Counted from the stretch's first letter, positions 5,822 to 55,580 are shown. The stretch: 58,049 nt of DNA from Myxococcales bacterium (GCA_016703425.1 JADJCA010000011.1:1-58049); one strand, 5' to 3'. Program-made: numbers and translations. The notes: generated from the letters alone by a model not told the origin.

Positions 5822-5967
5822 CCACGGGCCGCGCACAAGGCGTCCTCGCTCCGGAACAGCTTCACAGTGTCGTCCCGTAGGCCGACGGTTATGCGGTTGT
5901 GCGGCACGCGCGCGGTGACCAACGCGGCGCGCTCCGTGTCTTCGGCGAATCGTGGGGGCGAGCCGCC

Positions 5968-6535
5968 TCAGCCGGACCATTCACCGGCGCCATAAAAGAC
6001 GAAGCCAGGGATGCCGCTCGCTTCTAGCGCATCCTTGACCTTCTCATGGACGACGATGGCGCTGGCGTTCTCCGCCAGACGAAACAGCAAGGCGCCGCCG
6101 GTCTTCGACTCGTCAATCACGAGCGATTCGAAGCCGAGATCGCCCGGTGACCCCGATCCGCCACCCAAGTACCGAGAGGCCACTAGGTCTGCGCAGGCCA
6201 CGAGCCCGACGATGTTGTAGGCCTTGTAGTCGCGGTATTCGGCGCCCGTGTCCGGGTTCTTGAGCACGGCGTCGAGGTATTGAATGTTGTCGACTCCGAC
6301 AACATTCCAGCGTTTTCGCCACATCGTCGCGCATCACCGGGATCGACTTCTCGTAGTACATGGGCTTGGGCTGGCCCTTGAACCGCGGGTTGAGCGTGTA
6401 GACGATGGGCGTTGGCACCGCCTCCGTGAGCGGGCGACCTTGGCGCCAGTTCCCCTCGATGCCGGGCCCGGTGGCGATCGGCATGATGGGGTGCCTGCCT
6501 TCGCCGACCATCACGTAATAGCTCACCGGGATCAC
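5968..6535 (-). CDS. polymorphic-toxin immunity-like protein (resembles Imm11/DUF1629), one frameshift
   Basis: The N-terminal part is in frame 6113..6535 (MIPVSYYVMVGEGRHPIMPIATGPGIEGNWRQGRPLTEAVPTPIVYTLNPRFKGQPKPMYYEKSIPV...). The C-terminal part is in frame 5968..6324 (...YLDAVLKNPDTGAEYRDYKAYNIVGLVACADLVASRYLGGGSGSPGDLGFESLVIDESKTGGALLFRLAENASAIVVHEKVKDALEASGIPGFVFYGAGEWSG). The tail pattern IDESK.GG.LFRL...VHEKVK..LE.SG..GF.F matches, from memory, the DUF1629/Imm11 family that is abundant in myxobacteria. The family name is unverified. Confidence 0.5.
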
Positions 6536-6582
6536 CCACCGCTCTCAGCGCTGCCCCTTGCCACGTCCACCAAGAGGCAGCG

Positions 6583-8367
6583 TCAAGCCTCGTCGTAAAA
6601 TGCGCGGATCTCGGCCTCGTACTTCTTGTAGATGACCTTGCGCTTGATCTTCATCGTCGGCGTGAGCTCACCCGTCTCGACGCTCAACTCGGCAGGAAGG
6701 ATCTTAATCTTCTTGATGGCCTGCACGCGCGCGAGGTCGCGATTCACCGCGTCGACCTCGCCCTGCAGCCAGCGGTGGAGCTTCTCGCACTTCGCCGCTT
6801 CGGGGAGCGTCTTGGCGTCGGAGCCGGCCCGCGAGCGAGCCTCCTCGAGCTTCGTAAGATCGATGGTGAGGAGCGCCGCGAGGTGCTTCTCGCGATCGCC
6901 GACGACGACGGCATGACCGACCACCGAGATGTCGCGGAGCTTTCCTTCGAGCACCTGCGGCGCGATGTTCTCGCCTCCGGCGGTGATGAGCAGATCCTTC
7001 TTTCGATCGGTGATCCGAAGGAAGCCCTCCTTGTCGAACTCCCCGATGTCGCCCGAATGAAGCCAGCCGTCGGCGTCGAGCGCCTCGGCGGTGGCCTCCG
7101 GGTTCTTGTAGTAGCCCTTGAAGACGTGGCGACCGCGCATGCAGATTTCGCCGTCTTCGGCGATCTTGGTCTCCGTGCCGGGAATGACCGTCCCCACGGA
7201 GCCGGTCTTGTAGCGATTGGGGAGCGACACCGTCGCGGGGCCCGTGCACTCGCTCATGCCGTAGACCTCCATGAGCGGAATGCCGAGGCTCAGGAAGAAC
7301 TCGAGGGTGCCCCGCGAGATGGGCGCCGCCGACGTGATGGCGAAGCGACACCGATCGAGGCCGAGCGCTACACGCACCTTCTTGAAGACGAGGGCGTTGG
7401 CCACCTCGTACAACATGGGGCGGGCCGTGCCGCCTTGATCGGCGTAACCGCCGGCCAAACCTTGCTTGCGCGCCCAGACCGCGATCTTCTTCTTGAGGCC
7501 CGTGTTCTTGGACCCCGCCTCGACCATCTTGGCCTGGATCTTCTCCCAGACGCGGGGCACGCCGAAGAAGATCGTGGGGTGCACCTCGCGGAGGTTTTCG
7601 CCGAGCTTTTCCATGCTCTCTGCGAAATACGTGCACCCTGCAGCCGCCATGGGCCCGTGGATGCTCACGACCTGCTCGGCGATGTGGCTGAGGGGCAAAT
7701 ACGAGAGGAACGTCTCCTCGGAGAAGTCGATGAGGGTCTTCACCGCCTCGGCCACGAAGGTGATGTTGTCGTGGCTGATCATCACCGCCTTCGGATCGCC
7801 CGTCGTGCCGGAGGTGTAGATGAGCGTGCAGACGTCATCGGGCTTTTGGCCGGCGATGCGCGCTTCGAGATCCGCTTCGGGTACGTCGCGGCCGAGCTCG
7901 AGCACCTGGTCGAAGGTGTAGACGCCCTCGCCTTCGACTTTGCCCTGCATGACGACGAACGCCTTGACCTTCGGCAGACGGTCTCTGACCGAGAGGAACT
8001 TGTTGAGCTGCGCCTGGTCCTCGACGACGACCACGGCCGAGTCGCTGTGGTCGGCGATGTATTGGCACTGATCGGGGGTGTTGGTCGTGTAGATGTTCGC
8101 CGGGAAGCCGCCGGCGTAGATCGCCGCCAGATCGGCCACGACCCACGCGACGCAGTTGAAACCGATGATAGAGACGCCCTGCTTCGGCTCGAGGCCGAGC
8201 TTCATGAAGCCGCGCGCGCAGAGCCGGACCTTGTCGCGGTAGTCCTTCCACGAGAGCGTTTGGTAGGTGCCGCCGACCTTGTGGCCGAGCGCTGGCCTCG
8301 AGGCGTGACGCGACGCCACAGACTCCATCACCTCCATCACCGTTCGCTTGTTCACGTTCGCCTCCAC
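6583..8367 (-). CDS. fadD: long-chain fatty-acid--CoA ligase (AMP-binding/ANL superfamily)
   Basis: 594-aa intact ORF. AMP-binding motif YTSGTTGDPKAVMISHDN, YGMSECTG, the GWLHSGDIGEFDKEGFLRITDRKKDLL linker, and the C-terminal ...IKRKVIYKKYEAEIRAFYDEA typical of FadD/FACS enzymes. Confidence 0.9.
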   Translation of the reverse strand: MEANVNKRTVMEVMESVASRHASRPALGHKVGGTYQTLSWKDYRDKVRLCARGFMKLGLEPKQGVSIIGFNCVAWVVADLAAIYAGGFPANIYTTNTPDQCQYIADHSDSAVVVVEDQAQLNKFLSVRDRLPKVKAFVVMQGKVEGEGVYTFDQVLELGRDVPEADLEARIAGQKPDDVCTLIYTSGTTGDPKAVMISHDNITFVAEAVKTLIDFSEETFLSYLPLSHIAEQVVSIHGPMAAAGCTYFAESMEKLGENLREVHPTIFFGVPRVWEKIQAKMVEAGSKNTGLKKKIAVWARKQGLAGGYADQGGTARPMLYEVANALVFKKVRVALGLDRCRFAITSAAPISRGTLEFFLSLGIPLMEVYGMSECTGPATVSLPNRYKTGSVGTVIPGTETKIAEDGEICMRGRHVFKGYYKNPEATAEALDADGWLHSGDIGEFDKEGFLRITDRKKDLLITAGGENIAPQVLEGKLRDISVVGHAVVVGDREKHLAALLTIDLTKLEEARSRAGSDAKTLPEAAKCEKLHRWLQGEVDAVNRDLARVQAIKKIKILPAELSVETGELTPTMKIKRKVIYKKYEAEIRAFYDEA

Positions 8368-37454: not shown

Positions 37455-37859
37455 TCACGAACGACGCCGGGGTCGCTCGGCTGAGCCGCCGCCCAATTCC
37501 GGCGGCAGGGTGAAGTCGTTGTCGATACGTCCGTCGAACTCTGCGCCTTCGTCGAGCACAAGGGCTCCGCCGGAGACGTCGCCGCGGGCCGCCGCTCCGG
37601 CCGCCACGTGCACACGGCCCGTGACGCGCATCTCGCCAGTCAGGGTGCCGGCGACGGCGATGGAGTCGGCCTCGATGACGTCGGCGGCCACGTTGCCGCC
37701 CCGCTCGATCGAAAGCTCACCGCGCAACGACACGTTGCCTTCGAGTTCACCGGCAACGACGAGGTTGCCCTCGCCGCTCACGCGGCCGCGGACCTTCGCC
37801 GTGGGGCCGATACGTCCCTCGGTCGCTGCACTCGTGCTACGGGTTTTTCCCTGCGCCAT
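37455..37859 (-). CDS. bactofilin (DUF583)
   Basis: 134 aa. ...KVRGRVSGEGNLVVAGELEGNVSLRGELSIERGGNVAADVIEADSIAVAGTLTGEMRVTGRVHV.... Confidence 0.85.
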   Translation of the reverse strand: MAQGKTRSTSAATEGRIGPTAKVRGRVSGEGNLVVAGELEGNVSLRGELSIERGGNVAADVIEADSIAVAGTLTGEMRVTGRVHVAAGAAARGDVSGGALVLDEGAEFDGRIDNDFTLPPELGGGSAERPRRRS

Positions 37860-37893
37860 CGCTTCATGCTCGTACTACGGGTCGCGCCCGATG

Positions 37894-39396
37894 TCACGAG
37901 GCGTCCCGCTCCCAGACGACCCAGCGGTCACCGCGCCACTTGAGGTGGAACGTCCCCGCCGGCGGCCGGAACCCTTCACCGCGGGTGAGCACGTAGTCGT
38001 AATAGGGAAAGAGCTCACCGCGTGCGGGGACCATTTCAGGCGTCCACTCCCAGCGGCTTCGCGCAGGCCCGCCGGGCGGCGGATATTTGCCCGGCTTGTA
38101 GTCGAACGGCCAATGCAAGTAGCCCGCGTAGGAGAACTGCACGATGCCGCCCTTGTGCAGCTGGTAGTACGAGCCGAAGTGAAGGAACGGGGCCCAGTTG
38201 GTCACGTTCGAGCCGCGATCAAAGATCAGCGCAGCGACCCTCTTGCGCGGCTCCATGACGCCGATGGCCTGGTCGATGTCACCGACCTCCTCGAGCTGAA
38301 ATTTCATGAAGTGGCGACACGTGTTCACCGTCGATGCGACGCCAAGCGCCGCCATCGCGAAGGTGGCCAAGTGCCCACGCAGGCCGATGGGCATCCGCAA
38401 GAGCGGTATCGCCGTGAGCAGGAAGAGGATGGGGAACCGCTGCGCGATGAGCCAGATGTAATCGTGGCCTTCGCCCATCGTGAAGTAGAGGACGACGCAC
38501 GCGAGCGGCAGGAGCACGTAGGCCCGACTGCGGTCGCTCGAGCCGTCGCGATCGCCTTGGGCGAGCCCCACGACGAAGACCGCGACCATCGCCGTCGCGA
38601 TGAGGATGGCCTCGTCGGTCGTGTCTTTGAAGACGTCGGTGAGCCACTGAAAGACGCCCGGCAACGCTTGGTTGAGCGGCGCGATGCCGTCTTCCGGGCC
38701 CGGCCGCAAGGCTCCGCGCGTCAACTTGCCGGCGTCGGTGAAGAGCGTCCACCGAGCGAGCGCGAGGAGAGCGGGCACCGTCGGCAGGCCGGCGCGAATC
38801 CACTCACGAGGCCTCGTCCAGGGAAAGAGCGCGGCGAAGCCGAGCCCGAAGATCCCGAAGGGAAAGACGTGGGAGTAGAAGAGCGCGAAGCTGATGGCGG
38901 CGAGCAAGAGGCCACGGCGAAGGGTCGGCGCTTCGAACCAGCGGACGGCGGTCGCGAGGCCCCAGAACATGAGCGGGATGCCGAGGAGGAACGGCAGGAG
39001 CCCGAACATGAACATCACGTTCACGAGGAGGGGCACCGCGAGGAGCGCCGCCCGGCCGTCTTTGCCGAAGGCGCGCATCAGCTCGCGAATGGCGAGCGGC
39101 GTGCCTCCCAAGTACGCGCTCATGAGCAGGACGTTGGCGGGCACAACGCCCACGAAGGTCGAGAGGACGCTCGCGAGCAGGTAGTAAAAGACGTATTGCG
39201 TCCGGCCGAGCGTCAGAACGAGGTCGCCGAAGCCGTAGACCGGGTTTCCGATGTCGTGGATGACGCGGATCGTCGCGAGGTGAAACGGGACGTCTTGGAT
39301 CGGCGGATACTTAACGATCCACGCGGGGGCCGACGCGACGACGGCCACGAGCAAGAAGAAGAGCGTCTCGCGTTTCGGAAGAGTGAAGCGCATGGC
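37894..39396 (-). CDS. polytopic membrane protein with C-terminal extracytoplasmic domain. Fold and function undetermined; GT-C glycosyltransferase-like is one possibility.
   Basis: About 12 predicted TM helices (FFLLVAVVASAPAWIV, YVFYYLLASVLSTFVGVV, LAVPLLVNVMFMFGLLPFLLGIPLMFWGL, ...). The C-terminal ~130 soluble residues are rich in aromatics (YAGYLHWPFDYKPGKYPPPG...WRGDRWVVWER). Confidence 0.55.
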   Translation of the reverse strand, partial: AMRFTLPKRETLFFLLVAVVASAPAWIVKYPPIQDVPFHLATIRVIHDIGNPVYGFGDLVLTLGRTQYVFYYLLASVLSTFVGVVPANVLLMSAYLGGTPLAIRELMRAFGKDGRAALLAVPLLVNVMFMFGLLPFLLGIPLMFWGLATAVRWFEAPTLRRGLLLAAISFALFYSHVFPFGIFGLGFAALFPWTRPREWIRAGLPTVPALLALARWTLFTDAGKLTRGALRPGPEDGIAPLNQALPGVFQWLTDVFKDTTDEAILIATAMVAVFVVGLAQGDRDGSSDRSRAYVLLPLACVVLYFTMGEGHDYIWLIAQRFPILFLLTAIPLLRMPIGLRGHLATFAMAALGVASTVNTCRHFMKFQLEEVGDIDQAIGVMEPRKRVAALIFDRGSNVTNWAPFLHFGSYYQLHKGGIVQFSYAGYLHWPFDYKPGKYPPPGGPARSRWEWTPEMVPARGELFPYYDYVLTRGEGFRPPAGTFHLKWRGDRWVVWERDAS

Positions 39397-39465
39397 GACG
39401 TTTGGCGGACCGCGCCGGCCCGCCGGGCACGCAACGTACACCATCCCCGAAACGCGGATATGCGT

Positions 39466-41382
39466 CTATCGCGTGCGGAGCCGCGTGCCCAACGACGAGG
39501 CGGTCCGCGGGTACCTCGAGCTGTGAGGTCCATGGCTTAGGCGGACCGTGCTCGGCGGTTGGCTGGGGTTCCCCGGAACGGCGGCGTCGGCGACCGCCGA
39601 GCGCACGCGTTCGATGACGTCGAAGAGCCGCTCGGGAGCGATGCCCAACGACTTGAGCGTGGCTTCGTCCGCGGCCGTCGGGCCATCCACCTGCTCGAGC
39701 ACGGCAACGAGGACGTCGGCGCCCATGACGAGTCGCGAAGGAATCGTGGGAGGCACGGCGCCATGGTGGAACGAACAGGCCTCGATGATCTCCGGCGAAA
39801 GGCGCCACGCGCGAGCGACCTCCGCGCCGGCGCGCTGGTGATGGCGCGCCACGAGCTCGTGGGCGAGGTCCGGGTGTTCGACGGCGTAGGGCATCTGCGC
39901 GAGGAGCCGATAGATGCGCGACTCGCCGATGTCGTGGAGCAAGCCGCAGAGGTAGGCGCTGTCGCAAGCGACGCGCAGCTCGTGTGTCAGGAGTCGCGCG
40001 GCGATGGCGGCGCGAACGCTGCGCTCGAAGGAACGGGCAACTTCCGCCCGGAACACGGGGAAGTCTTGTGCGCTTCGTTCGTAGGCGACTTGCAGGAGGA
40101 GGTCGCGCGAGGTGGCGAGACCGATACGCACCAGCGCGACCTGCGTCGAGACGGGCTTCATGCCACGCGAATAGAGCGCCGAGCCGGCGACGGCGATGAA
40201 CCGCGCCGCGAGGGCCGGGTCGCGCTCCACGAGCCGTGCGATGCGACCGATGTCGGTGCGAGGATCCTCAGCGAGCCGCAACGCCTCCTCGGCGGCCTCC
40301 GGCAAGACCGGCAGACCGGCGCGCCCCGTCGCGAGCTCGCGAAGGAGACTCGCTTCGAGCGCCACGCGCCCGTCGCTCGCGGGCCCAAGGGAGACGCTCG
40401 GCATCCGTAGCGACACGTGACCAGCGCGGCTGAAGAGGGGCCGCGCGCTCTGGACGCGATTCTTTCCTGCGCGTTTCGCCTCGTAGAGGGCAGCGTCGGC
40501 GCGCTGGCAGAGCGCTTCCACGCTCATGTCCGGGGCACGCGGATCGAAAGACGCTAGTCCGAAGCTGGCGGTCACGGGCCGCGCTCCCAGTTCGTGGAGC
40601 CGCACCGCCTCGACGCGCTTGCGGCATCGTTCGGCCACGGCCTCGGCTTCGCTGCTTCGCGCCGCGGGAAGCACCACAACAAACTCCTCGCCACCCCAGC
40701 GACCGACGAGGCCTTCGGCGTCACCACCGAGCGCCTCGGCGACGGCGCACAGCACGTGATCGCCGACGTCATGGCCGAAGCAGTCGTTGACCTGCTTGAA
40801 GTCATCGACGTCGACGAAGACCACGGAGAACGCGGCGCCGCGCGACCACGCCTCCTCAAGCGCCGCGTCGATGCTCCGGCGGTTGGGGAGGTTGGTTAGC
40901 GGATCGACCGACGCTTCACGCCGCAAGGTGTCGCGCTCGGCGCGGAGCCGACGCAAGCGATCGCGATCGCGCTTGTGGCGCAGTTGAACGCGCACGCGCG
41001 CCTGGAACTCGGCGACGCGCTCGCGCACCGAAACGAAGTCGTCAGCGCCGCAGAGCAAGCCTCGCGTGACCGTGTCTTCGTCGAAGGCACCCTCCGCGAC
41101 GATCATGATGGGCAGTTCGCGAGCGGCTTCCGTTGCCCGTAGCTCGGCGCATAGCGCGAGGCCTCCGTGGGGCACGGCCACGTCGATGAGCACCAAGTCG
41201 GGCACAAACTCCGAGACCACCTCCGACAGTCGCGAGGTCGTCAAATGAACCCGAAGCTCGCACCCGCTGGCGGCCAACGCGGAGATCACGTCCCGGCTTA
41301 GACCCGAGGCACCTTCGAAGAAGAGCACCCGCGGGTTCTGCTCCTCCGCGGGGGCGAGACTCTGCGCAGGGAGCGAGGGCAT
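39466..41382 (-). CDS. response regulator with GGDEF diguanylate cyclase and HDOD domains (REC-GGDEF-HDOD)
   Basis: REC: VLFFEGASG...DLVLIDVAVP...IMIVAEG. GGDEF: catalytic RWGGEEFVVVLP and NRRSID.... HDOD: LCGLLHDIGESRIYRLL. Start at MPSLPAQS (41382). Confidence 0.85.
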   Translation of the reverse strand: MPSLPAQSLAPAEEQNPRVLFFEGASGLSRDVISALAASGCELRVHLTTSRLSEVVSEFVPDLVLIDVAVPHGGLALCAELRATEAARELPIMIVAEGAFDEDTVTRGLLCGADDFVSVRERVAEFQARVRVQLRHKRDRDRLRRLRAERDTLRREASVDPLTNLPNRRSIDAALEEAWSRGAAFSVVFVDVDDFKQVNDCFGHDVGDHVLCAVAEALGGDAEGLVGRWGGEEFVVVLPAARSSEAEAVAERCRKRVEAVRLHELGARPVTASFGLASFDPRAPDMSVEALCQRADAALYEAKRAGKNRVQSARPLFSRAGHVSLRMPSVSLGPASDGRVALEASLLRELATGRAGLPVLPEAAEEALRLAEDPRTDIGRIARLVERDPALAARFIAVAGSALYSRGMKPVSTQVALVRIGLATSRDLLLQVAYERSAQDFPVFRAEVARSFERSVRAAIAARLLTHELRVACDSAYLCGLLHDIGESRIYRLLAQMPYAVEHPDLAHELVARHHQRAGAEVARAWRLSPEIIEACSFHHGAVPPTIPSRLVMGADVLVAVLEQVDGPTAADEATLKSLGIAPERLFDVIERVRSAVADAAVPGNPSQPPSTVRLSHGPHSSRYPRTASSLGTRLRTR

Positions 41383-41462
41383 GGCCACGTTCTGGTGAAC
41401 GGCCAACGGAGCGCGATCTTGACCCCGGCGAGGATGCGCGGACCGATGAGGCCTCGCTGGCG

Positions 41463-42110
41463 TTATTTCCGGGCCGCCTCGACGAGCGGAGCCAAGACGC
41501 GGGCCAAGTCCCGGGAAGAGGCCGTCTTGGGCAGCTTCACGTCGACCTTCCACTCACTCGCGCGTCCGTCGCCGCGGGGCACCGAGAAGGCCGGGATGAA
41601 CTTCGAGGTGTAGCCCAACGAGTCGAGGCGCTCGCCGTGCACGTCGGCGTCGAAGGCAACGAGGGTCACACCTGCGAGCACGTCGTCGAGCTCGCCGTTG
41701 GCAACGGCCGCCTTCAACGTCCGACATGGCGGGCACCACGAGGCGCCTACTTCCACGATGACGGCTCGTCCTTCGCGCTTGGCGCGCGCCGTTGCGGCGC
41801 GGAGAAACGTGGCCACCTCCGCATCCGCCGGCGCCTCGATCCTCACGGGGCGCGGATCGACCGCGGGCGTCGTCGTGGTCGTGGTCGAGGTCGGGGTCGG
41901 GGTCGGGGTGACTAGGGTCCTAGCGGACCCGTCGACATGCCTTTCCTCCGTCCCTTCGGGACTCCGTCCAGTCATGTTCGGGGTCGGGGTCGAGCCGCTC
42001 ACGACCGGTGACGACGCGTTGGCGGTCGTGGGCGCCCCATCCCTCGCGCACGCCGCGCAGCACGCGCACGCGCATGCCAGACGCGCGAGCGTCCGAACGA
42101 GTCCGGTCAT
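41463..42110 (-). CDS. thioredoxin-family lipoprotein (periplasmic thiol:disulfide oxidoreductase)
   Basis: Lipoprotein signal LARLACAC..., a Thr/Pro-rich linker, then the thioredoxin active site VEVGASWCPPCRTLK. Its start overlaps the upstream cytochrome c stop (ATGA). Confidence 0.8.
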   Translation of the reverse strand: MTGLVRTLARLACACACCAACARDGAPTTANASSPVVSGSTPTPNMTGRSPEGTEERHVDGSARTLVTPTPTPTSTTTTTTPAVDPRPVRIEAPADAEVATFLRAATARAKREGRAVIVEVGASWCPPCRTLKAAVANGELDDVLAGVTLVAFDADVHGERLDSLGYTSKFIPAFSVPRGDGRASEWKVDVKLPKTASSRDLARVLAPLVEAARK

Positions 42111-46754: not shown

Positions 46755-47621
46755 CTAGGCACGTAGCTCCTCCACGAACCTCGTCGCGGCCCGGCCAAGC
46801 TTACGTCCCTCGCGGAAGTAGAGCCGCGGCTTGAAGGTGTGGGCCTCGCGCCAGCGAATCTCGCGAAAGACCCCGCGCGAGAGCTCGGCCTTCACCATGT
46901 GCTCAGGCATCCAACCGAAGCCCACGCCCGTCATCAGGGCGACCTTCTTGGCGGCGAAGTCCGAGAGCCGAACGCGCGTCCGCTGTTCGAGGCCGGCCGT
47001 CGGCAAAGCGAGGCGCGGGTCGGAGCCACGCACCGTCAGGAGGACGTGCGCGGCGAGCTCCTCTGCCGTTGGACGCGCGCCCAATCGGACGAGCGCGTGG
47101 CCGCGGTGGGCCACGAGCCGCGCACGAATCGGCGGAAGCTCCACGCTCCGGAGCCCCGACGTGGTGGGCGGCAAGACGGCAATCATGAGGTCGGCGTTCG
47201 ACTCGACGAAGACGCGTTCCACGCCAGAGAGGAAGTCGGCGTCTACGTCGACGCGCGTCGGCGCGCCGTCTTTGAGCAGCGACGCGACGACGCCGAGGAG
47301 CGGCTCGACCGAGCAGATGCCGTCGAAGACGACGTGCAGCGACGGCTCCCAGCCGGTCTTCATCTCGTGGCACGAGCGCATGAGTTCGTCTTCCAGTGCG
47401 AGGAGCCGTCGGCAGTGCTCGAGGACGCGCGCGCCTTGGCTCGTGGGCTTGGTGCGATAGCCGGTGCGGTCGAGCAGCTCGAGGCCCGTCTGCTCCTCGA
47501 GGAGGCGCATGGCGTACACGATGGCGGTGTGCCGTTTGCGTAGCGCCGCCGCCGCCTTCACGAAGGTGCCATGGGTCGCCAGGGCGTCGAAGGCGCGGGC
47601 CTGCTCCAGGGTGACGTGCAT
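46755..47621 (-). CDS. LysR-family transcriptional regulator
   Basis: The N-terminal wHTH LEQARAFDALATHGTFVKAAAALRKRHTAIVYAMRLLEEQTGLELLDR is typical of LTTRs. 288 aa with a C-terminal substrate-binding-fold region. It is divergent from hmgA. Confidence 0.85.
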   Translation of the reverse strand: MHVTLEQARAFDALATHGTFVKAAAALRKRHTAIVYAMRLLEEQTGLELLDRTGYRTKPTSQGARVLEHCRRLLALEDELMRSCHEMKTGWEPSLHVVFDGICSVEPLLGVVASLLKDGAPTRVDVDADFLSGVERVFVESNADLMIAVLPPTTSGLRSVELPPIRARLVAHRGHALVRLGARPTAEELAAHVLLTVRGSDPRLALPTAGLEQRTRVRLSDFAAKKVALMTGVGFGWMPEHMVKAELSRGVFREIRWREAHTFKPRLYFREGRKLGRAATRFVEELRA

Positions 47622-47648: not shown

Positions 47649-47704
47649 TTGTGTGACGTTTTTTGAACTTTCTACGGAGAGCTCGCCTCGCTACGAACGT
47701 CGTC

Positions 47705-48847
47705 ATGGACGTCCCCTACGTACGCGGCAAGGTTGCGCTTCAGGCCCACGTCGGTCTCCCGGAAGGGAGCGTCGAGGAGGAGTACGCACGAAACGGCTTC
47801 TTCGGCCGCTACGCGCACCTCTATCGAAAACACGCGCCGGTGGGCTGGACGCGCATCGAAGGGCCGCTCAAGCCGCGCCTCTACGACCTCTCGGAAGGTC
47901 CGAACCGCGGCGAGCCGGCGGCGGTCGCTGCTTCGCAGAGCGGTGACCTCGTGGGCGCCCGTGTCACGATCCTGGAGAACGCCGACGTCCGCGTTCAGCT
48001 CGCGACGCTGGAGGCGCCGACGCCGTATTTCTTCCGCAACGCCGACGCCGACGATCTCTTCTTCGTCCACGCGGGCGCCGGCCGTCTCGAGACGGACTTC
48101 GGGCCCCTCACCTACCAGAAGGGCGACTACCTCCTCGTTCCGCGAGGCACCGCGTACCGCTTCGCGCCGACGAGCAAGACGGCGCTCTTGGCCGTGGAGT
48201 CGATGGGCGAGCTTGCCGTGCCGGATCGGGGCATGCTCGGTCAGCACGCGCTCTTCGACCCGGCCGTGCTCGTCGTGCCGACGCCCGGTGAAGGCACAGC
48301 GCTCGCCGCCGTAAACGGTGAATACGAGCTCCGCATCCAGCGCTGCGGCGAGCTCACGCGGGTCTTCTACCCCTTCTCACCCATCGAGACGGTCGGCTGG
48401 AAGGGCACGCTCGCGCCCATGAAGCTCGCCGTGAACGACATCCGGCCCGTCAGCTCCGATCGGTACCACCTGCCGCCGAGCGCGCACACGACGTTCCTCG
48501 CGCCGGCCGTCGTCGTTTGCACCTTCGCGCCGCGCCCGCTCGAGAACGGCGATCCAACGGCGCTGAAGGTCCCCTTCTTTCACTCGAACATCGACTTCGA
48601 CGAGGTGCTCTTCTACCACGCAGGCGAGTTCTTCAGCCGCGCCGGCGTAGGCGCTGGGATGATGACCTTCCACCCGCAAGGCATTCATCACGGCCCGCAG
48701 GCGAAGGCCGAGGCGCGGTCGAAGACGGCCACGGCGACGAGCGAGATCGCGATCATGATCGACACGAAAAGGCCGCTCTTTCCGTCGAAGACGGCGGGCG
48801 CCTTCGAGGTCGAGAACTACTGGAAGAGCTGGCAGGAATCGAAATGA
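47705..48847 (+). CDS. hmgA: homogentisate 1,2-dioxygenase
   Basis: 381 aa, a short form. Cupin-like core with ...FRNADADDLFFVHAGAG..., ...FFHSNIDFDEVLFYHAGEF... and ...MTFHPQGIHHGP..., resembling HGD metal-binding segments. Its stop overlaps the hppD start (ATGA). Confidence 0.75.
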   Translation: MDVPYVRGKVALQAHVGLPEGSVEEEYARNGFFGRYAHLYRKHAPVGWTRIEGPLKPRLYDLSEGPNRGEPAAVAASQSGDLVGARVTILENADVRVQLATLEAPTPYFFRNADADDLFFVHAGAGRLETDFGPLTYQKGDYLLVPRGTAYRFAPTSKTALLAVESMGELAVPDRGMLGQHALFDPAVLVVPTPGEGTALAAVNGEYELRIQRCGELTRVFYPFSPIETVGWKGTLAPMKLAVNDIRPVSSDRYHLPPSAHTTFLAPAVVVCTFAPRPLENGDPTALKVPFFHSNIDFDEVLFYHAGEFFSRAGVGAGMMTFHPQGIHHGPQAKAEARSKTATATSEIAIMIDTKRPLFPSKTAGAFEVENYWKSWQESK

Positions 48848-49932
48848 ACTCCACGACCATGAACACGAAGAACCCCTGCGGCGTTCGCGGCATCGCGTAC
48901 ATCGAGTTCTGCTCGCCCGAGCCCGACGCGATCCACCGGTTGCTGCTGGACTTCGGCTTCTCGCGGACGATGCGGCACCAAGCGAAGGCCATCGACCTCT
49001 ACGAGCAGCATGGCATCACGTTCCTCCTGAACCGCGAGCCTCGGAGCTTCGGCGCGGCCTTCGCGAGCCAACACGGCCCGTCGATCTGTTCGATGGGTTG
49101 GCTCGTCGACGATCCGGTGCGTGCCCTCGGCACCGCGAAGGAGCGGGGCGCTCGCCCCATGATGGAGAGCGATCTCAGCGAGACGCGGGGAGCCCACGCC
49201 GGCGCGGGGATTCCGTCGGTCTACGGCATCGGCGATAGCCTGATCACGTTCGTGGGGAGCACCACGAGCGCCCCCAAGGACATCGGCCGCACCCTCGGCT
49301 TCGTCGCGCTCGACAAGCCGGACCGCGTCGCCGACAAGGGATTTCTGACCATCGACCACCTGACGAACAACGTCGCGAAGGGCACGATGGGGCGCTGGGC
49401 CAGCTTCTACAAAGACGTCTTTGGCTTCACCGAGGTGAGGTACTTCGACATTCGCGGCGTCAAGACGGGGCTCACGTCGTATGCGCTCCGCTCCCCCTGC
49501 GGCACCTTCGCGATCCCCATCAACGAAGCCGACGAAGCGAAGAGCCAGATCAACGAATACCTGGAGGAGTACAAGGGCCCCGGGATCCAGCACGTGGCCT
49601 TCTTGACGTCCGACATCCTCGCGTCACTGCGAGGCCTCGACGGCACTGCGCTGGAGTTCCTCGATATCGACGACGAGTACTACCGGGGCGTCTTCGACCG
49701 CGTGCCTAACGTGAAGGAAGACCGCGCCGAGCTCCAGAAGCGCAACGTCCTCGTCGACGGCGACGCCGACGGCTACCTGCTCCAGATCTTCACCAAGAAC
49801 ATCGTGGGCCCCATCTTCGTGGAGCTGATCCAGCGGCAGAACCACCTGTCCTTCGGCGAGGGCAACTTCACCGCGCTCTTCCGATCGATCGAGCGGGATC
49901 AGGCGAAGCGCGGCGTCTTCGAAGGGGCGTAG
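48844..49932 (+). CDS. hppD: 4-hydroxyphenylpyruvate dioxygenase
   Basis: 362 aa. Two VOC-fold modules. The C-terminal signature ...GPIFVELIQRQNHLSFGEGNFTALFRSIE matches the HPPD consensus (F.E.IQR....GFG.GNF.ALF..IE). Confidence 0.9.
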   Translation: MNSTTMNTKNPCGVRGIAYIEFCSPEPDAIHRLLLDFGFSRTMRHQAKAIDLYEQHGITFLLNREPRSFGAAFASQHGPSICSMGWLVDDPVRALGTAKERGARPMMESDLSETRGAHAGAGIPSVYGIGDSLITFVGSTTSAPKDIGRTLGFVALDKPDRVADKGFLTIDHLTNNVAKGTMGRWASFYKDVFGFTEVRYFDIRGVKTGLTSYALRSPCGTFAIPINEADEAKSQINEYLEEYKGPGIQHVAFLTSDILASLRGLDGTALEFLDIDDEYYRGVFDRVPNVKEDRAELQKRNVLVDGDADGYLLQIFTKNIVGPIFVELIQRQNHLSFGEGNFTALFRSIERDQAKRGVFEGA

Positions 49933-50001: not shown

Positions 50002-50532
50002 TCAATCCGGCGGCGGCGGCAGGCCGTAGAGCGCACCGACGCCACCCGAGTCCTTGACGAGGATCCCACCGTCGTCGATGCCACTGTCGAGCGCCGGCAG
50101 GCCATAGAGCGGCTGCACGTTGGCGTCGTGACCGCCGCCGTCGAGGGCGCCGGCGTCGGGCGGAGGTGGCAAGCCGTAGAGCGCGACCACACCACCGTCG
50201 TCTTTCGGACCGGAGTCCTTGAGAAGCCCCGCGTCGGATGCGCCACCCCCATCCGCGGTGCCGCCACCGCCACCGTCGGAGCTTCCGCCGTTGCCGGCGT
50301 CGCCTGTGCCACCGTCGCCGATCGTGCCGTCGCCGGACGTGCCGCCGCACGCGGCCACCGTGAGGGCCGCCGCGAACGTGAACGTCGCCCACCGGTCGAG
50401 TCGCTTGGTCGACCCCGGCACCGCACGGGCTCCGAAGCCTGCGGGGACGGCGTTTTGACAGAAGGGGCACGCGTCGTGATGCGTGCCGATGTGGCGCTGG
50501 CACTGGGGACAGGGGACGAGCGTCATGAACAC
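50002..50532 (-). CDS. zinc-ribbon (zf-HC2-like) membrane-anchored protein with Gly/Asp-rich region and (A/P)LYGLPxxxD repeats. Possibly anti-sigma-factor-like.
   Basis: N-terminus CPQCQRHIGTHHDACPFCQ (C-x2-C ... H-x3-C-x2-C). TM segment WATFTFAAALTVAAC. Low-complexity GDGGTGDAGNGGSSDGGGGG. Three repeats: ALYGLPPPPD, PLYGLPALD, ALYGLPPPPD. Confidence 0.5.
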   Translation of the reverse strand: MFMTLVPCPQCQRHIGTHHDACPFCQNAVPAGFGARAVPGSTKRLDRWATFTFAAALTVAACGGTSGDGTIGDGGTGDAGNGGSSDGGGGGTADGGGASDAGLLKDSGPKDDGGVVALYGLPPPPDAGALDGGGHDANVQPLYGLPALDSGIDDGGILVKDSGGVGALYGLPPPPD

Positions 50533-50644: not shown

Positions 50645-51316
50645 TCAGTTCAGCTTGGTGAGCTCGCAGCCGTAAAACGCGGCGCCTACATCGCCGGTCA
50701 TCTGCACCGACTGGTTCACGCGGTCAGACTTGAACGTGTAGAGGTAGTGGCCGTCTTCGCCGCTCAGCGACTGCGTCGCCTCACCGCGCTTGACCTTGAC
50801 CGTGAGCGGCCCGCCCCAAACCACCTGGAATCTACAATCAAGCAGGTAGAGCTTGTCCTTCTCGGAGGGAAACTCGACGGTCACTTGATACTTGCCGTTG
50901 GGAGGATTCGTCATCGAGTAGGCGCCGTCGGGCATGACGCTCGAAGGCGAGACGAACATGAGCGGACCGGCGTACCCGATCTTCATGCCACCGGTGTGCA
51001 GCGGAGCGGCGGGCGTCACCTTCATTTGCGGCGGCGGCGGGGGCGCCGCGAGGGCGGCGATGTTCATCACCTTGAGCGCCTTGTTGAGAAACTCCACCTT
51101 CTTGAGCGGCGCGAGCGGCGGGCTCGCCGGCTTCGGCGGGGGCATCTCGGCAGACACGTAGGGCGCGGCGCTCATGCTCGGAGACGACGGTCCAGCGGGG
51201 AGCGGCCCGCGCGCGTCGACGGGCTTCAGCACGGGACCGTCGGCTGAAACCGCGGCGGCGGCGAGGAACGTGGAGAGAGCGGCGGCGCAGGCGACGGAGA
51301 CGGCGCGTTTCGGCAT
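50645..51316 (-). CDS. secreted protein, function unknown
   Basis: Signal peptide MPKRAVSVACAAALSTFLAAAAVSADG. Pro-rich linker. C-terminal beta-rich domain (YQVTVEFPSEKDKLYLLDCRFQVVWGGPLTVKVK). Confidence 0.5.
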   Translation of the reverse strand: MPKRAVSVACAAALSTFLAAAAVSADGPVLKPVDARGPLPAGPSSPSMSAAPYVSAEMPPPKPASPPLAPLKKVEFLNKALKVMNIAALAAPPPPPQMKVTPAAPLHTGGMKIGYAGPLMFVSPSSVMPDGAYSMTNPPNGKYQVTVEFPSEKDKLYLLDCRFQVVWGGPLTVKVKRGEATQSLSGEDGHYLYTFKSDRVNQSVQMTGDVGAAFYGCELTKLN

Positions 51317-51363: not shown

Positions 51364-53184
51364 TCAGGCCTCGCGAACGCTCGCGAGCGACCCGCCCGGC
51401 GCACTCCAGAGGCGCGCCGCCTCCGCCTCAATGGCCTCTTGGAGCGCGGGGTCGACGCCCGCCGGAAAGAGAGCGTGGGGCGCGCGGCCCGACACGTCCT
51501 TGTCGAGGCGAATGCCCTCGAGCGGCGCGCCGGGGAACGTTCGCAGGAGGTCTTTGGTCATGCGCTGCTCGACGCGCGTGAGGAGCTTCGCGTACGTGGC
51601 GTCGTCGAGCGACTTCATGAGCGCGACGGTGGGAAAGTCGATGGCCTTGAGCACCGCGTCGCGGTCGGCGACGTCTTCGCCGGTGACGCGCGCCAAGATG
51701 CTCGCGAAGGTGCTCCCGTAACACTTCTGGACCTGCGCCTTGCGGAACTCCTTGTCCATGGGGCCGAACAAGTGCTTCTCGAACTGGCTCACGCCCCAGA
51801 TGCCGTCGGCGAAATGGCCGCGATTTTGCCCGAAATATTCGCCCTTTTCGCGAAGGTGCTCGGCCATGGCCCGGAGCTGCGTGGCCATGTTGGCCTGCGC
51901 TTCGAGAACGCGATCGGCGAGCCTCAGGTCATCGGCCACCCAGTCGACGTCGCGGAGCTTGTCGCTCAGGAACGGCCAGACCATGACGTTGTAGTAGTTG
52001 TTGAAGTCGAGCAGGAACTTGAGCCGGAAGACCTCGTAGCAGCCGAAGATCGGGTAGAGCTTCGCGTAGAGGCTGAGCGTCAGCTCGTACTTGAACTTGT
52101 AGTAGGCGTTGTAGGTCTGGATCTTCTTCTCGAAGACTGCCGTGTCGCCGGCGAGCTCCGACTCGATCATCGAGACGATGAACTCGTTGGCCGTCGCGAT
52201 GAAATCCGAGCCCGGGCTGTAGAACGGATCGACGAAGGCGCCGGCCTCGCCGGTCAGCGCCCAGCGATCCTTCGAGAAGTATTGCTCGGTGTAATACGGC
52301 AGGTGCGCGTAAGCCTGAAAGTCGACGAACTCGGCGCCTTGCATCAGGTCGCGTGACGACCGGTGCGAGTTCAAGAACGCCTCGAAGGCCTCCTTCTTCC
52401 GGATCGTGTCGCCGATGCGCTCCTTGTCATAGACCGCACCGACGCTCATCACGTCACCGGCCAGCGGGATGAACCAGATCCAGTAGCCGTCGTACATCAT
52501 GTGGTTCGTCGACAGATGGCGCGACGTCCATCGCACGCGGCCACGCCACGCGGGGTCCGTTGATGCGGCGTCGAGGCCGGCCACGTTCTTGTATCGCCCC
52601 CAGGCGGCGGCCGTTTGCAGGCGCATCTCCTTGTGCACCTTCATGCCCAAGCTTCGCGGAATCACGTGGCGGCGCCCCGTGGCGTCGACGACCCAGCGAG
52701 CCGTGACTTCAAACTTCTCACCGCCCTGCTCAAAGACGACGGTGTGCGCGCTCGTCGCGTCGATGGTCACGCCTTGGACCTTGGCGCCGAGCCGAAAATC
52801 GACCCCGACGGCGCGGTTCAGCGGCACGAGATCGCGCTCGAGGGCGGCCCGATCGAGCTGGAAGCTCGGAACGTGTGGAAAGCGCGTGGAGCCGATTTCG
52901 CTCATCTCCGGAAGCGGCAGGTCCTTTGCTTCCGTGTCGAAGAAGAAGCGCAGCCCGTTTTTCGGCAGTTGATGCTGGTAGAGGTACGACGACAGCCCGA
53001 GGCGACGAATCATGTAATTCGCAGCCACCTCGACGGTGGACTCGCCGACCTTGAAGTCGTCGATGACCTCCTTGGCCTCGAGGCAAAGAACCGAGAGCTC
53101 AGGACGAACGAGCTTCAGGTGGCGCGCGAGAAACGCTCCGGCGATTCCACCGCCCAACACGACCACGTCGAATGACTGTGACAT
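51364..53184 (-). CDS. flavin-dependent halogenase-family protein (tryptophan-halogenase-like FAD enzyme)
   Basis: N-terminal FAD motif VVVLGGGIAGAFLA. The halogenase-family hallmark GYWIWFIPL (WxWxIP). Second FAD motif GEAGAFVDPFYSPGSD. 606 aa, longer than PrnA-type enzymes. I could not align the catalytic Lys (K79 of PrnA) with confidence. Confidence 0.7.
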   Translation of the reverse strand: MSQSFDVVVLGGGIAGAFLARHLKLVRPELSVLCLEAKEVIDDFKVGESTVEVAANYMIRRLGLSSYLYQHQLPKNGLRFFFDTEAKDLPLPEMSEIGSTRFPHVPSFQLDRAALERDLVPLNRAVGVDFRLGAKVQGVTIDATSAHTVVFEQGGEKFEVTARWVVDATGRRHVIPRSLGMKVHKEMRLQTAAAWGRYKNVAGLDAASTDPAWRGRVRWTSRHLSTNHMMYDGYWIWFIPLAGDVMSVGAVYDKERIGDTIRKKEAFEAFLNSHRSSRDLMQGAEFVDFQAYAHLPYYTEQYFSKDRWALTGEAGAFVDPFYSPGSDFIATANEFIVSMIESELAGDTAVFEKKIQTYNAYYKFKYELTLSLYAKLYPIFGCYEVFRLKFLLDFNNYYNVMVWPFLSDKLRDVDWVADDLRLADRVLEAQANMATQLRAMAEHLREKGEYFGQNRGHFADGIWGVSQFEKHLFGPMDKEFRKAQVQKCYGSTFASILARVTGEDVADRDAVLKAIDFPTVALMKSLDDATYAKLLTRVEQRMTKDLLRTFPGAPLEGIRLDKDVSGRAPHALFPAGVDPALQEAIEAEAARLWSAPGGSLASVREA

Positions 53185-53256
53185 GCGGGCACCATAGCGC
53201 GCCGATGGCCTGTCGTCAGTCGTGCCCCGCGAGGTTTCGAAGGCGTGGGTCCCCCA

Positions 53257-55290
53257 TCACCGGTCGAGGAGAAACCGCACCCTGCGCAGGAGCTCGTCGG
53301 CCCGGAAGGGCTTCGCTAGGAACGCCGCTCGATCGTCGACGAGCATGGTCTCGCGCTCGGCGCCCTCCGGGGCGTAGCCCGACACGAACAAGACGCGCAG
53401 CTCCGCTCGTGCCGCCATAAGCCGGCGCGCCAGCTCCACGCCGCCCATCTTGGGCATCACCAGGTCGGTCACGAGCAGCGACACGGTCCGCTTGCCGCTC
53501 TCCACGAGGTCGAGCGCTTCAAGCGGGTCGGCGGCCGCGATGACGCGATAGCCAGCGTCGGCGAGCACCTCCGCCACAGCGTTGCGAAGCTCGACCTCAT
53601 CCTCCACGAGCAGGAGCGTCTCGGTGCCGTGCTCCGACTTCGCCGGCGAGAGCTCCTTCGTCGAGACAAGGTCGGCGTCGCCCGACTCGAGGGGAAAGTA
53701 CACGCGAAACGAGGTGCCCGCGCCCGGTGCGCTGTCGACGACGATGCCTCCATCACATTGCTGCACGACCCCGTAAACGGTCGCCAGGCCGAGCCCCGTC
53801 CCTTTGCCCTCGGGCTTCGTCGTGAAGAACGGGTCGAACATCTTGCTCTGCGTCTCGTCGTCAATGCCGGAGCCGGTGTCGGCGACCGTCAAGAGCGCGT
53901 AGCTGCGGGGCCGCAAGTCGCCGGAGAGCGTGCGCATTGGCGCCTCGAGGCGGACCTGCCCCGTCGCCAGCGTCAAGGTGCCACCGCTTGGCATCGCGTC
54001 GCGCGCGTTGACGACGAGGTTCATGACCACCTGTTCGATCTGACCGCGATCGGCGCGAATGGTCGTCGCCTCGCCTCCGCTTGGCGCGACGAGCGACAGC
54101 TCCACGTCGGCACCGATGAGCGGCACGAGCGTCGCCGCCAGATCGCGGACGACCGCCGTGAGGTCGATGCGGTCGCGTCCCAAGACCTGCCCACGGCTAA
54201 AGGCGAGGAGCTGGGCCGTGAGGGCCGTAGCCCGTTCGCCGGCTTTGCGCATCTCCGCGAGGTCGACGAAGGCCGCGTCGCCCTTGGGCACGTGGGCCGC
54301 GAGGCGCCGCTCGAGCAGCGTCGCGCGCGTCATGAGGATCGCCAGGAGGTTGTTGAAGTCGTGGGCGATCCCGCCAGAGAGGCGTCCGAGGGCCTCGAGC
54401 TTGTGGGCCTGCCGCAGCTGCTTTGCGATCTTCTCCCTCTCGAGCATCTGCCGCCGCAGGAGCGAATTGGCGCGCACCAGCTCGGCGGTGCGCTCGTCGA
54501 CGCGACGCTCGAGCTCGGCCTGCGAACGACGCAGCTCCTCCTCAACGCGCTTGCGAGAGAAGAAGTCCGGGATCTCGGGCGGCGCCGTGGCCGAAGGCGC
54601 GGGACGCGACGCCATGAAGCGGCGCGTGTGGTCCTCGATGCGATGGGGCGGGGCCATGATGAAGCGGCACGCCTCGTCGCCGCGGGCCCGGCAGAGGACC
54701 TCGACGGCAACGAGCACGCGATCGAACGCCGCCTCGCACCACCCCGACGAGTAGCCGGCGTTCATGATGCAGACGGGGAAGGTCTTGTGCCGTTGGGCCG
54801 GCGGCGACTCGGCGTCCCTCCGCGTCAGCCAGGCGTCCGCCTCGAACGAATAGGGATGGTCGTAGAGCAAGAAGAAGTCGTCGCCAGCGCTGGGATTCGA
54901 GTCGGGGTGGATGTCGACGAAGGCCCAACCGGCGTGCGCGAAATGCACGGGCCCGGCGCTCAAGCGCTCCAACGGATCGTCGACGCCCATTTTTCGCGCA
55001 AAGTCTGCCGCGTCGGACCGCCCGAGCGCGTGGGCTAAATCGAAGAGGATGTTGCGCGAAAACGAGCTGGCCTCGGCTTCGCGACCCGGGCCGTAAAGAT
55101 CCTCGACGAGGCCGAAAAACTCGACGGAGAGCGACGACGCCCGAATCAAGACATAACGCTCGCCGGCGATCTCAAGCTTGCCTTGCGACGGGTCGAAGAG
55201 GCGCTGCCGAAAGTAGGCCGAAACGAGCGCTTCGGCCTTCTCGAACGCCCCCGTCATGGGGGTCGGCACGCGCACCGTCCGAAGCGTCAT
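53257..55290 (-). CDS. hybrid sensor histidine kinase/response regulator with N-terminal XylR-N/V4R-type ligand-binding domain
   Basis: The N-terminus ...[16 protein letters not shown]...[42 protein letters not shown] fits the V4R (4-vinyl-reductase) pattern GY..GW...........E..C...GD..C.F. This is followed by a coiled coil, HisKA ([11 protein letters not shown]), HATPase_c ([26 protein letters not shown]) and a C-terminal REC (LLLVEDE...LLVTDLVMP...LFVSGY). Confidence 0.85.
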
Positions 55291-55376
55291 GGATGGCGAT
55301 GATCGACCGCGTGAGGCCCTTGTGCAAGCGAACCCCCTTGAACTCTTGGCGGATTGTGCAACAAACTCCGTCAATC

Positions 55377-55580
55377 ATGAGCGATGCGGCCCCCAAGACG
55401 ACGGACAAGCGAAAGCAGAGCCTCTACTTCCCCGCCGAGATGCTCTCGGAGATGCAGGGTGAGGCGCACCGCCTGAGCCGCTCGCTCTCGTGGGTCGTCC
55501 AGCGAGCGTGGAAGGTCGCGCGCAAAGACATCCGCACGATGCCCGGCACCACGACGCCCGAACGCGCCGACGGCACCTGA
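55377..55580 (+). CDS. small ribbon-helix-helix (CopG/Arc/MetJ-type) DNA-binding protein
   Basis: 67 aa. MSDAAPKTTDKRKQSLYFPAEMLSEMQGEAHRLSRSLSWVVQRAWKVARKDI.... KRKQSLYFP is a beta-strand followed by two helices, the typical RHH layout. It is divergent from the V4R kinase gene. Confidence 0.55.
   Translation: MSDAAPKTTDKRKQSLYFPAEMLSEMQGEAHRLSRSLSWVVQRAWKVARKDIRTMPGTTTPERADGT

Follow-up and report, generated by a model that had tools for sequence, protein, structure and literature searches.

We examined a 58-kb stretch of DNA (58,049 nt, referred to here as the window) from a Myxococcales bacterium (GCA_016703425.1, JADJCA010000011.1), which has a G+C content of ~68% and whose genes have their nearest relatives in the Polyangiaceae. 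This report concerns two genes that lie next to each other on the minus strand of the window. The upstream gene (53257..55290) encodes a 677-aa hybrid histidine kinase with a receiver domain (HK-REC), in which a sensor module, a coiled coil, HisKA, HATPase_c and REC follow one another. The downstream gene (51364..53184), whose start is separated from the kinase stop by a 72-nt spacer (53185..53256), encodes a 606-aa protein of the flavin-dependent halogenase (FDH) family, of the phenol/pyrrole type represented by CndH, CmlS and PltM. A preliminary description of the locus had offered, as one hypothesis, that the two form an aromatic-responsive unit, next to genes of tyrosine catabolism. The reading that we favour, and believe somewhat more than we doubt, is that these are two intact and probably functionally independent genes: a halogenase of a Polyangiaceae clade whose substrate is made elsewhere and, beside it, an unrelated sensor kinase.

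In the FDH, an N-terminal FAD-binding domain is followed by ~230 aa of helical C-terminal sequence. The protein scored 60.6 bits against the Pfam Trp_halogenase model (PF04820, cut-off 21), and its best NCBIfam match was the CmlS equivalog NF033113 at 93.6 bits, a score so far below the cut-off of 900 that the protein is to be regarded as a family member and not as a CmlS orthologue. A phmmer search of the PDB (E<=1e-3) returned 20 matches, all of them FDHs except one uncharacterised flavoprotein (3nix), with FasV (8zop), CndH and CmlS as the best and ChlB4, PltA and Bmp2 following (E 1e-14 to 1e-19). An AlphaFold2 (AF2) model computed with 47 orthologues as input had a pLDDT of 89.7 and a pTM of 0.90, and the top 42 PDB chains retrieved with this model by Foldseek were FDHs (PltM, CtcP, FasV, Bmp2, CndH, RadH, ChlB4, PltA, Mpy16, CmlS and MalA') apart from seven chains of 3nix. 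Structures of PrnA and RebH, tryptophan halogenases marked by a conserved active-site Glu (E346 in PrnA) and a tryptophan-binding module, were found neither among the PDB sequence matches nor among the 50 listed fold matches, and the tryptophan 5-halogenase 5uao aligned with the N-terminal 83 residues of the protein only. The window FDH has the fold of this family, with separate FAD and substrate modules, and groups with the phenol/pyrrole-type halogenases.

The WxWxIP motif and a catalytic lysine are the features taken to separate FDHs from related monooxygenases. The former occurs as W235-I-W237-F-I-P240 (52465..52482, minus strand), read from the translation within the string GYWIWFIPL by which the preliminary description had recognised the enzyme; W235, W237, F238, I239 and P240 are invariant in the 47 orthologues. 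The latter, which the same description had left unplaced while naming its absence as the mark of an oxidoreductase, is predicted to be K75 in the sequence LPKNGLRFFF (codon 52960..52962, minus strand, checked). In phmmer alignments K75 pairs with the lysine of CndH 'PIKRGG', which is K76 by count along the chain, and with that of CmlS 'VKKPS'; we take CndH K76 and CmlS K71, like PrnA K79, to be the catalytic residues. K75 was invariant first in 14 and then in all 47 orthologues. Two further elements complete the set: a GxGxxG FAD motif (G11-G-G13-I-A-G16, with G11, G13 and G16 invariant in the 47 sequences) and a GxxxxFxDPxxSxG motif represented by the block FxDPFYSPGSDF, which is invariant or nearly so. 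As far as sequence and modelled fold can be read, every testable hallmark of a halogenase is present in this protein.

That the protein might instead be a flavoprotein with no halogenating activity, for example a monooxygenase, a geranylgeranyl-reductase-type reductase or a maturase resembling LodB and GoxB, was suggested in part by the preliminary description, and we regard this identity as improbable. It draws on the distance from the CmlS model, on a score of 78.7 bits for the geranylgeranyl reductase family of NCBIfam together with weak scores for LodB, GoxB, QhpG and MenJ (each of these scores falling far short of the model's cut-off), on an atypical second FAD motif and a poorly modelled lysine loop, both taken up below, and on the lack of a biosynthetic cluster in the window. 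Set against these points are the invariance of K75 and WxWxIP, the fact that halogenases are the best matches in both sequence and fold, with geranylgeranyl-reductase-like and monooxygenase structures appearing from rank 43 onward in the Foldseek list, and the occurrence of distant relatives in gene clusters of the aryl-polyene type, a class known to include halogenated products. The suggestion is weakened because the sequence hallmarks of halogenases are all intact.

The kinase is located directly upstream of the FDH on the same strand, as the preliminary description had it. Its longest open reading frame (ORF) extends over 53257..55374 (minus strand) and opens at a TTG at 55374, and translation probably begins at the ATG at 55290, because the orthologue in the closest relative of this locus, a Polyangiaceae metagenome-assembled genome (MAG; L001), aligns from exactly that residue; the end coordinate given earlier matches this position. 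HATPase_c and Response_reg exceed their Pfam cut-offs, the latter with 64.9 bits for the REC domain (53275..53613, minus strand, residues 560-672), in which the acceptor Asp is found in LLVTDLVMP. HisKA scored 22.3 bits, below the cut-off of 26.9; its H-box region aligns in the CckA models, and the H-box string, like LLVTDLVMP, was read from the translation. NCBIfam models of the CckA type can be aligned with the whole of the core and receiver (343 bits, equivalog cut-off 1000), and the CckA kinase core in the PDB (5idj) matches with an E value of 5.8e-53. No hydrophobic N-terminal segment is visible in the sequence, which suggests a soluble sensor, and the protein should be a cytoplasmic HK-REC. 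HisKA, HATPase_c and REC are its only output-side domains, with no DNA-binding domain among them and, unlike the aromatic-responsive activators of the NtrC family, neither an AAA+ sigma54-interaction domain nor a C-terminal helix-turn-helix (HTH).

The sensor module (54586..55290, minus strand, kinase residues 1-235) is of the XylR_N/V4R type. The V4R signature noted in the preliminary description is literally present in the translation, and the region, for which a failure of profile detection had been named there as refuting, is detected through matches to solved structures in both sequence and fold. Its Pfam scores are just below the cut-offs (29.7 against 31 for V4R, PF02830; 19.9 against 23 for XylR_N, PF06505). 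In a phmmer search of the PDB (E<=0.05) the sensor matched only MopR (E 5.6e-5), PoxR and CapR, a regulator of the DmpR type. The AF2 model of kinase residues 1-290 has a pLDDT of 89, and the top 18 structures retrieved with it by Foldseek are sensor domains of PoxR, MopR and DmpR (E 7.5e-11 to 1.6e-8), with TM scores, normalised to the target, of 0.71-0.78 for isolated domains and 0.34-0.35 for full-length DmpR chains. Close homologues of the sensor also carry precomputed V4R and XylR_N hits. Given the PDB sequence matches, the fold and these homologues, the assignment is sound despite the sub-threshold Pfam scores.

Residues C174, E197, C200 and C208 of the sensor align by phmmer with the C/E/C/C columns of MopR and are putative Zn ligands; we take C155, E178, C181 and C189 to be the zinc site of MopR. 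The four residues are invariant in 37 sensor homologues, in which ~50 columns in total do not vary, including H145, W122, W154 and W184. The positions of MopR H106 and W134, presumably the residues that anchor the phenol hydroxyl, fall on F117 and H145 of the window sensor, with H116 adjacent, by residue count along a phmmer alignment at 22% identity in which the register is uncertain.

A search with the 290-aa N-terminal region found 1614 homologues (E<=1e-3), of which the best 120 (P0121-P0240) are 47-64% identical to the window sequence and belong to Myxococcota, Planctomycetota, Acidobacteriota, Ferrovum, Omnitrophota and archaea (Thermoplasmata, Hodarchaeota). The module is found by itself, in proteins of ~290-320 aa, or in fusion proteins with HisKA/HATPase, PAS, GGDEF or GAF domains, and in six other loci its neighbours were kinases, receivers, and PAS or GGDEF/EAL proteins, never a halogenase-family gene. 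A module so well conserved between domains of life, and joined to so many different partner domains, is more likely to recognise a common ligand than a niche halo-aromatic one. The literature yielded no characterised member of, or ligand for, this sensor subfamily, and V4R is described there only as a small-molecule-binding domain. In one locus (L085, GCA_037975565.1, a MAG; 4580-7976) a V4R-kinase is split into products of 317 aa and 340 aa that are divergent from a full WS_DGAT gene carrying both Pfam domains of that family. This echo of the partner gene of the FDH described below was seen only once and may be a coincidence.

The genomic contexts of FDH relatives were compared. Contigs from one genome per species were scanned, 220 relatives were confirmed, 80 loci were taken with at most 10 kb of flanking sequence on each side, and the ORFs of all 80 loci were clustered to find conserved partners. 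Full-length orthologues with 54-79% identity occur in Sorangium, Polyangium, Chondromyces, Pendulispora and many MAGs, the closest relative L001 having 78% identity, and a near-identical metagenome copy (99%) is free of truncation. Loci of the Polyangiaceae type number 44, with FDHs of ~600 aa at 51-78% identity. A gene of ~440 aa resembling the wax ester synthase/diacylglycerol acyltransferase family (WS/DGAT) lies upstream on the same strand in 29 of them, within ~12-115 bp of the FDH in 24 (L002, L005, L007-L009, L012-L016, L018, L021-L030, L032, L034 and L041). This partner scored 59 bits against TIGR02946, below the cut-off, and 23.3 bits against the Pfam WS_DGAT_cat model (cut-off 23.6), and it has the HxxxD motif as 'HALVD'; on these grounds it ranks as a distant relative within the WS/DGAT family of O-acyltransferases. 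The two-gene WS/DGAT-like and FDH module is common to Polyangiaceae that include Sorangium and Chondromyces; in Sorangium it is located downstream of a block containing pilQ and beside a divergent LysR-like gene, both of these neighbours having been assigned by eye. The gene downstream of this module (c12) was considered as a counterpart of a 223-aa ORF in the window and rejected, the two sequences being unrelated by eye.

The remaining 36 loci contain more distant FDHs (39-46% identity) from Nannocystis, Sandaracinaceae, Planctomycetota, Nitrospirales and others. Genes for a ketoacyl synthase (KAS), an acyl carrier protein (ACP) or a dehydratase resembling ApeI or ApeP were found within 4 kb of the FDH in 28 of these. 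The order in Nannocystis pusilla is dehydratase, FDH, ACP, dehydratase, KAS and PlsC-type acyltransferase, and a Planctomycetota MAG has an MMPL gene and two KAS genes ahead of the FDH; PlsC-type acyltransferase and MMPL genes were seen in the two distant loci viewed in detail. Genes of the KAS, ACP, ApeI/ApeP, acyltransferase and MMPL types are components of aryl-polyene clusters (PMC8253772), and the clusters for xanthomonadins, which are brominated aryl polyenes, have been reported with a halogenase gene (PMC3691225). The gene content suggests the production of halogenated aryl-polyene-like lipids in Nannocystis, Sandaracinaceae, Planctomycetota, Nitrospirales and Brocadiaceae. Compact modules of the aryl-polyene type, composed of an ApeI-like dehydratase, an ACP, an ApeP-like dehydratase, a KAS and a PlsC acyltransferase and joined in Planctomycetota by MMPL, surround the FDH in this set (L045-L080, for example L068 9491-14693 and L053 302-8369), the hosts including a Brocadiaceae MAG, and three loci (L064, L075 and L080) contain two or three tandem FDH paralogues that are 36-43% identical to the window FDH. 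The distant relatives align only to residue ~460-520, and the C-terminus of the window FDH is longer.

Homologues of the KAS, ACP, dehydratase, acyltransferase, transporter and WS/DGAT-like genes are found nowhere in the 58-kb window. Pfam and NCBIfam searches of the ORFs called from 33.6 kb to the end of the window likewise revealed no nonribosomal peptide synthetase (NRPS), polyketide synthase (PKS), carrier-protein or flavin-reductase domain, in agreement with the preliminary description, whose term 'orphan' for the halogenase is correct because none of the four was found. One explanation for such an orphan is decay: deprived of its former WS/DGAT-like or aryl-polyene partners, the gene would now be an idle copy that serves no function. 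The lack of partner genes in 58 kb fits this view, as does the fact that the clade formed by the window, L001, L006 and L037 has no WS/DGAT-like neighbour. We nevertheless consider it very unlikely, given that the full-length frame is intact with every catalytic motif kept, that identity is 78% to L001 and 99% to the metagenome copies with no truncation, and that the third-position GC content of 0.87 is typical of expressed genes in the window; moreover, the missing partners could be encoded at another site of the genome.

In the reading of two independent genes, the halogenase would act on a compound supplied from outside the locus. If the enzyme follows the mechanism established for FDHs, FADH2 supplied by a flavin reductase that is not linked to the locus would react with O2 to form a flavin hydroperoxide, on which halide attack would generate hypohalous acid; this would be captured and positioned by K75, and an electron-rich aromatic carbon would then be halogenated. 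The partners of the FDH in other genomes, WS/DGAT-like and aryl-polyene-type genes, point to a substrate that is probably the aromatic head of an acyl- or lipid-linked metabolite, possibly carrier-bound, whose synthesis is encoded outside this locus. The kinase, for its part, would bind a small ligand in a Zn-stabilised pocket of the MopR/PoxR type and thereby modulate autophosphorylation of its His, and the phosphoryl group would be passed to the Asp of its own receiver and on to phosphorelay partners.

The adjacency of kinase and halogenase can be compared across the same 80 loci. The V4R-kinase, hppD, hmgA-like, LysR and sulfatase-like genes accompany the FDH in one of them, which is L001, and the sensor region of the kinase had no match in the other 79, which suggests that the juxtaposition is specific to the lineage of the window and its nearest relative. 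An HK-REC with a PAS sensor is present upstream of the FDH orthologue in four further loci (L036, L038, L039 and L040). The core of this PAS-kinase is only 36% identical to the window kinase, and in L036 an ORF on the opposite strand, resembling a lipoprotein, lies between the PAS-kinase and the FDH. In a neighbour-joining tree of the FDHs, a simple distance tree without support values, the window and L001 are sister to L006 and L037, which have no kinase, and the group with the PAS-kinase is a separate basal clade. An ancestral kinase-FDH adjacency was considered and rejected on the basis of this tree and the different sensor domains, and we read the pattern as probably two independent juxtapositions.

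Co-transcription of the two genes is possible. A scan of 49.8-55.7 kb, uninformative in this respect, revealed no promoter-like site; it contained one weak terminator-like hairpin, within the 3' coding end of the kinase, and fewer such hairpins than shuffled sequence. An alignment of the kinase-FDH spacer with that of L001 showed patchy conservation with no clear common element.

The tyrosine-catabolic genes that the preliminary description had placed ~1.4 kb further on bear directly on its hypothesis, and the account of them stands in part. The hppD gene (48844-49932) is bona fide, with 338.9 bits against TIGR01263 (4HPPD, cut-off 277), and its stop at 49932 is 1.4 kb from the FDH stop as described. 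It lies, however, on the opposite strand: hppD and the hmgA-like gene (47663-48847) form a plus-strand pair (47663..49932) that converges on the FDH, with two ORFs without an assigned family in between, and that is outside the kinase/FDH unit. The start of hppD at 48844, which was checked, is part of an ATGA overlap (48844-48847) with the stop of the hmgA-like gene, and the pair is translationally coupled. What had been called hmgA is only a divergent homologue, with a short product of 394 aa that scored 54.1 bits against TIGR01015 (cut-off 510.75). Human HGO matches this protein with an E value of 1.9e-11, and the conserved His/Glu/His columns, which we take to represent the iron ligands H335, E341 and H371 of the human enzyme, are aligned and kept; the protein is 78% identical in L001. 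A LysR gene (46755-47621, minus strand) is divergent from the pair, and the hmgA-like and hppD genes form a separate convergent unit with this LysR gene as their own.

Taken together, these results make it unlikely that the locus is a sense-and-modify unit, with a kinase that responds to a phenolic or halo-aromatic compound, perhaps derived from tyrosine or homogentisate, and is coupled to a co-transcribed halogenase that acts on the compound or makes the ligand. Such a unit would accord with the shared strand and the 72-nt gap, with the conservation of the pairing and its hppD/hmgA-like neighbourhood in L001, with the similarity of the sensor fold to phenol sensors whose structures contain phenol, cresol, chlorophenol or catechol as ligand, with the activity of phenol/pyrrole-type FDHs on phenols and pyrroles, and with the PAS-type HK-REC upstream of four other orthologues. 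Other points speak against it. Synteny is expected anyway in the nearest relative, which is the single locus with this arrangement; the sister loci L006 and L037 are without a kinase, the PAS-kinase group is a separate clade, and the kinase and FDH of L036 are split by an opposite-strand ORF. The sensor module is widespread across phyla and in archaea at 50-63% identity, with many fusions and with no FDH near it in six loci, and the FDH has other partners elsewhere. The phenol-anchoring residues of MopR are replaced by F117 and H145 as far as the register can be trusted, the HK-REC has no DNA-binding output, and the hppD/hmgA-like pair is convergent with a LysR gene of its own. The aromatic-responsive unit with a link to tyrosine catabolism, as originally proposed, is not supported by these comparisons. 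We hold quite unlikely a version in which a MopR-like sensor, rewired from a sigma54 activator to a phosphorelay kinase, would form a unit with a stand-alone halogenase in this Polyangiaceae lineage and detect its phenolic substrate or halogenated product, as a regulatory or detoxification module outside natural-product clusters.

Several observations nonetheless weigh against two independent genes, a halogenase with a substrate made elsewhere and an unrelated kinase. The kinase and FDH share a strand at a distance of 72 nt, and this pairing is kept in L001 at 78% FDH identity. The recurrence of a kinase-FDH adjacency in separate clades is mildly unexpected, somewhat above chance expectation and not fully explained. 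With regard to the activity of the FDH, K75 was placed by sequence alignment only, the AF2 loop of residues 72-76 having a pLDDT below 50; the second FAD motif has GE where GD is usual; and the literature yielded no activity data for any member of this FDH clade. Finally, the inference as to substrate depends on gene context in other genomes and not on the window itself.

Other genes of the window are of less direct relevance. Between the FDH and the convergent pair, downstream of the FDH and on the same strand, are two ORFs (50645-51316 and 50002-50532, minus strand) that encode proteins of 223 aa, with an apparent signal peptide, and 176 aa, with a zinc-ribbon-like N-terminal CPxC...CPFC motif and a tail rich in Gly and Asp; no Pfam or NCBIfam family matches either protein, and L001 has a homologue of neither. 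Divergent from the kinase is a gene for a TIGR04563 protein (55376-55579, plus strand, in ORF 55293-55580; 99.5 bits, cut-off 65), 'KQSLYFPAEMLSEMQGEAHRLSRSLSWVVQRAWKVARKDI', which we take to belong to a myxobacteria-specific family and whose sequence looks like that of a ribbon-helix-helix protein. The Pfam and NCBIfam searches from 33.6 kb to the window end identified DUF4388, an RsmE-type methyltransferase, a phosphoribosyltransferase, a bactofilin and a REC-GGDEF-HDOD protein, as well as a cytochrome c, a second kinase, a GDSL-like protein, LysR, TIGR04563 and a sulfatase/EptA-like protein. The bactofilin gene (37455-37859, minus strand) and the REC-GGDEF-HDOD/HD response regulator (39466-41553, minus strand), with a 516-aa ORF without an assigned family, occupy an upstream region (37455-41553) that is unrelated to the kinase/FDH pair.

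If the two genes are indeed independent, the locus itself is ordinary, an orphan halogenase beside an unrelated sensor kinase, and its value lies in the families to which the two proteins belong. The FDH clade is spread across the Polyangiaceae, usually with a WS/DGAT-like gene, outside the NRPS and PKS clusters in which myxobacterial halogenases are normally studied, and its product may be a halogenated compound, acyl- or lipid-linked, that is conserved but has never been looked for. The ligand of the XylR_N/V4R cassette, once identified, would annotate more than 1000 signaling proteins. The literature that was covered on orphan myxobacterial FDHs, FasV, aryl-polyene halogenases and V4R kinases contained no characterised member of either subfamily.

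Among known systems, those closest to the halogenase include CndH, the chondrochloren halogenase of Chondromyces crocatus (3e1t), and CmlS, the chloramphenicol halogenase (3i3l). These have the same fold and the same set of motifs (GxGxxG, a Lys ~75 residues in, WxWxIP and GxxxxFxDPxxSxG), and they match the window FDH with phmmer E values of ~1e-18 to 1e-19 over residues 3-370 and Foldseek E values of ~1e-18 to 1e-19. Unlike CndH and CmlS, to which it is ~22-25% identical, the window FDH has a different C-terminal region of ~230 aa, GE in place of GD and no surrounding biosynthetic cluster. The best full-length structural matches are PltM (6bza) and CtcP (7v0b), FDHs whose substrates are free phenolic or tetracycline compounds; they align over 520-590 columns including the helical C-terminal region, with TM scores of 0.55-0.59 normalised to the query, 17-18% identity and a large rmsd of 6-13 Å. 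In sequence they match less well than CndH and FasV do, and the substrate class cannot be transferred from them to the window FDH. The likeness to the halogenases of xanthomonadin and aryl-polyene clusters is by way of the 39-46% identical relatives among aryl-polyene-type genes; unlike these systems, the window has no aryl-polyene component genes in its 58 kb, and its FDH is longer at the C-terminus.

The kinase combines elements of two known systems. Its sensor has the A-domain fold and the Cys/Glu/Cys/Cys columns in common with the sigma54 activators MopR, PoxR, DmpR and XylR, at 20-23% sensor identity. The output of those proteins is an AAA+ sigma54 activator with an HTH, whereas that of the window kinase is HisKA-HATPase-REC, and the window sensor falls into a subfamily of its own, which is very conserved and occurs fused to many different domains. 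The core and receiver resemble those of the CckA-type hybrid kinases, from which the window protein differs in its sensor and in having no transmembrane segments, and it is not a CckA orthologue.

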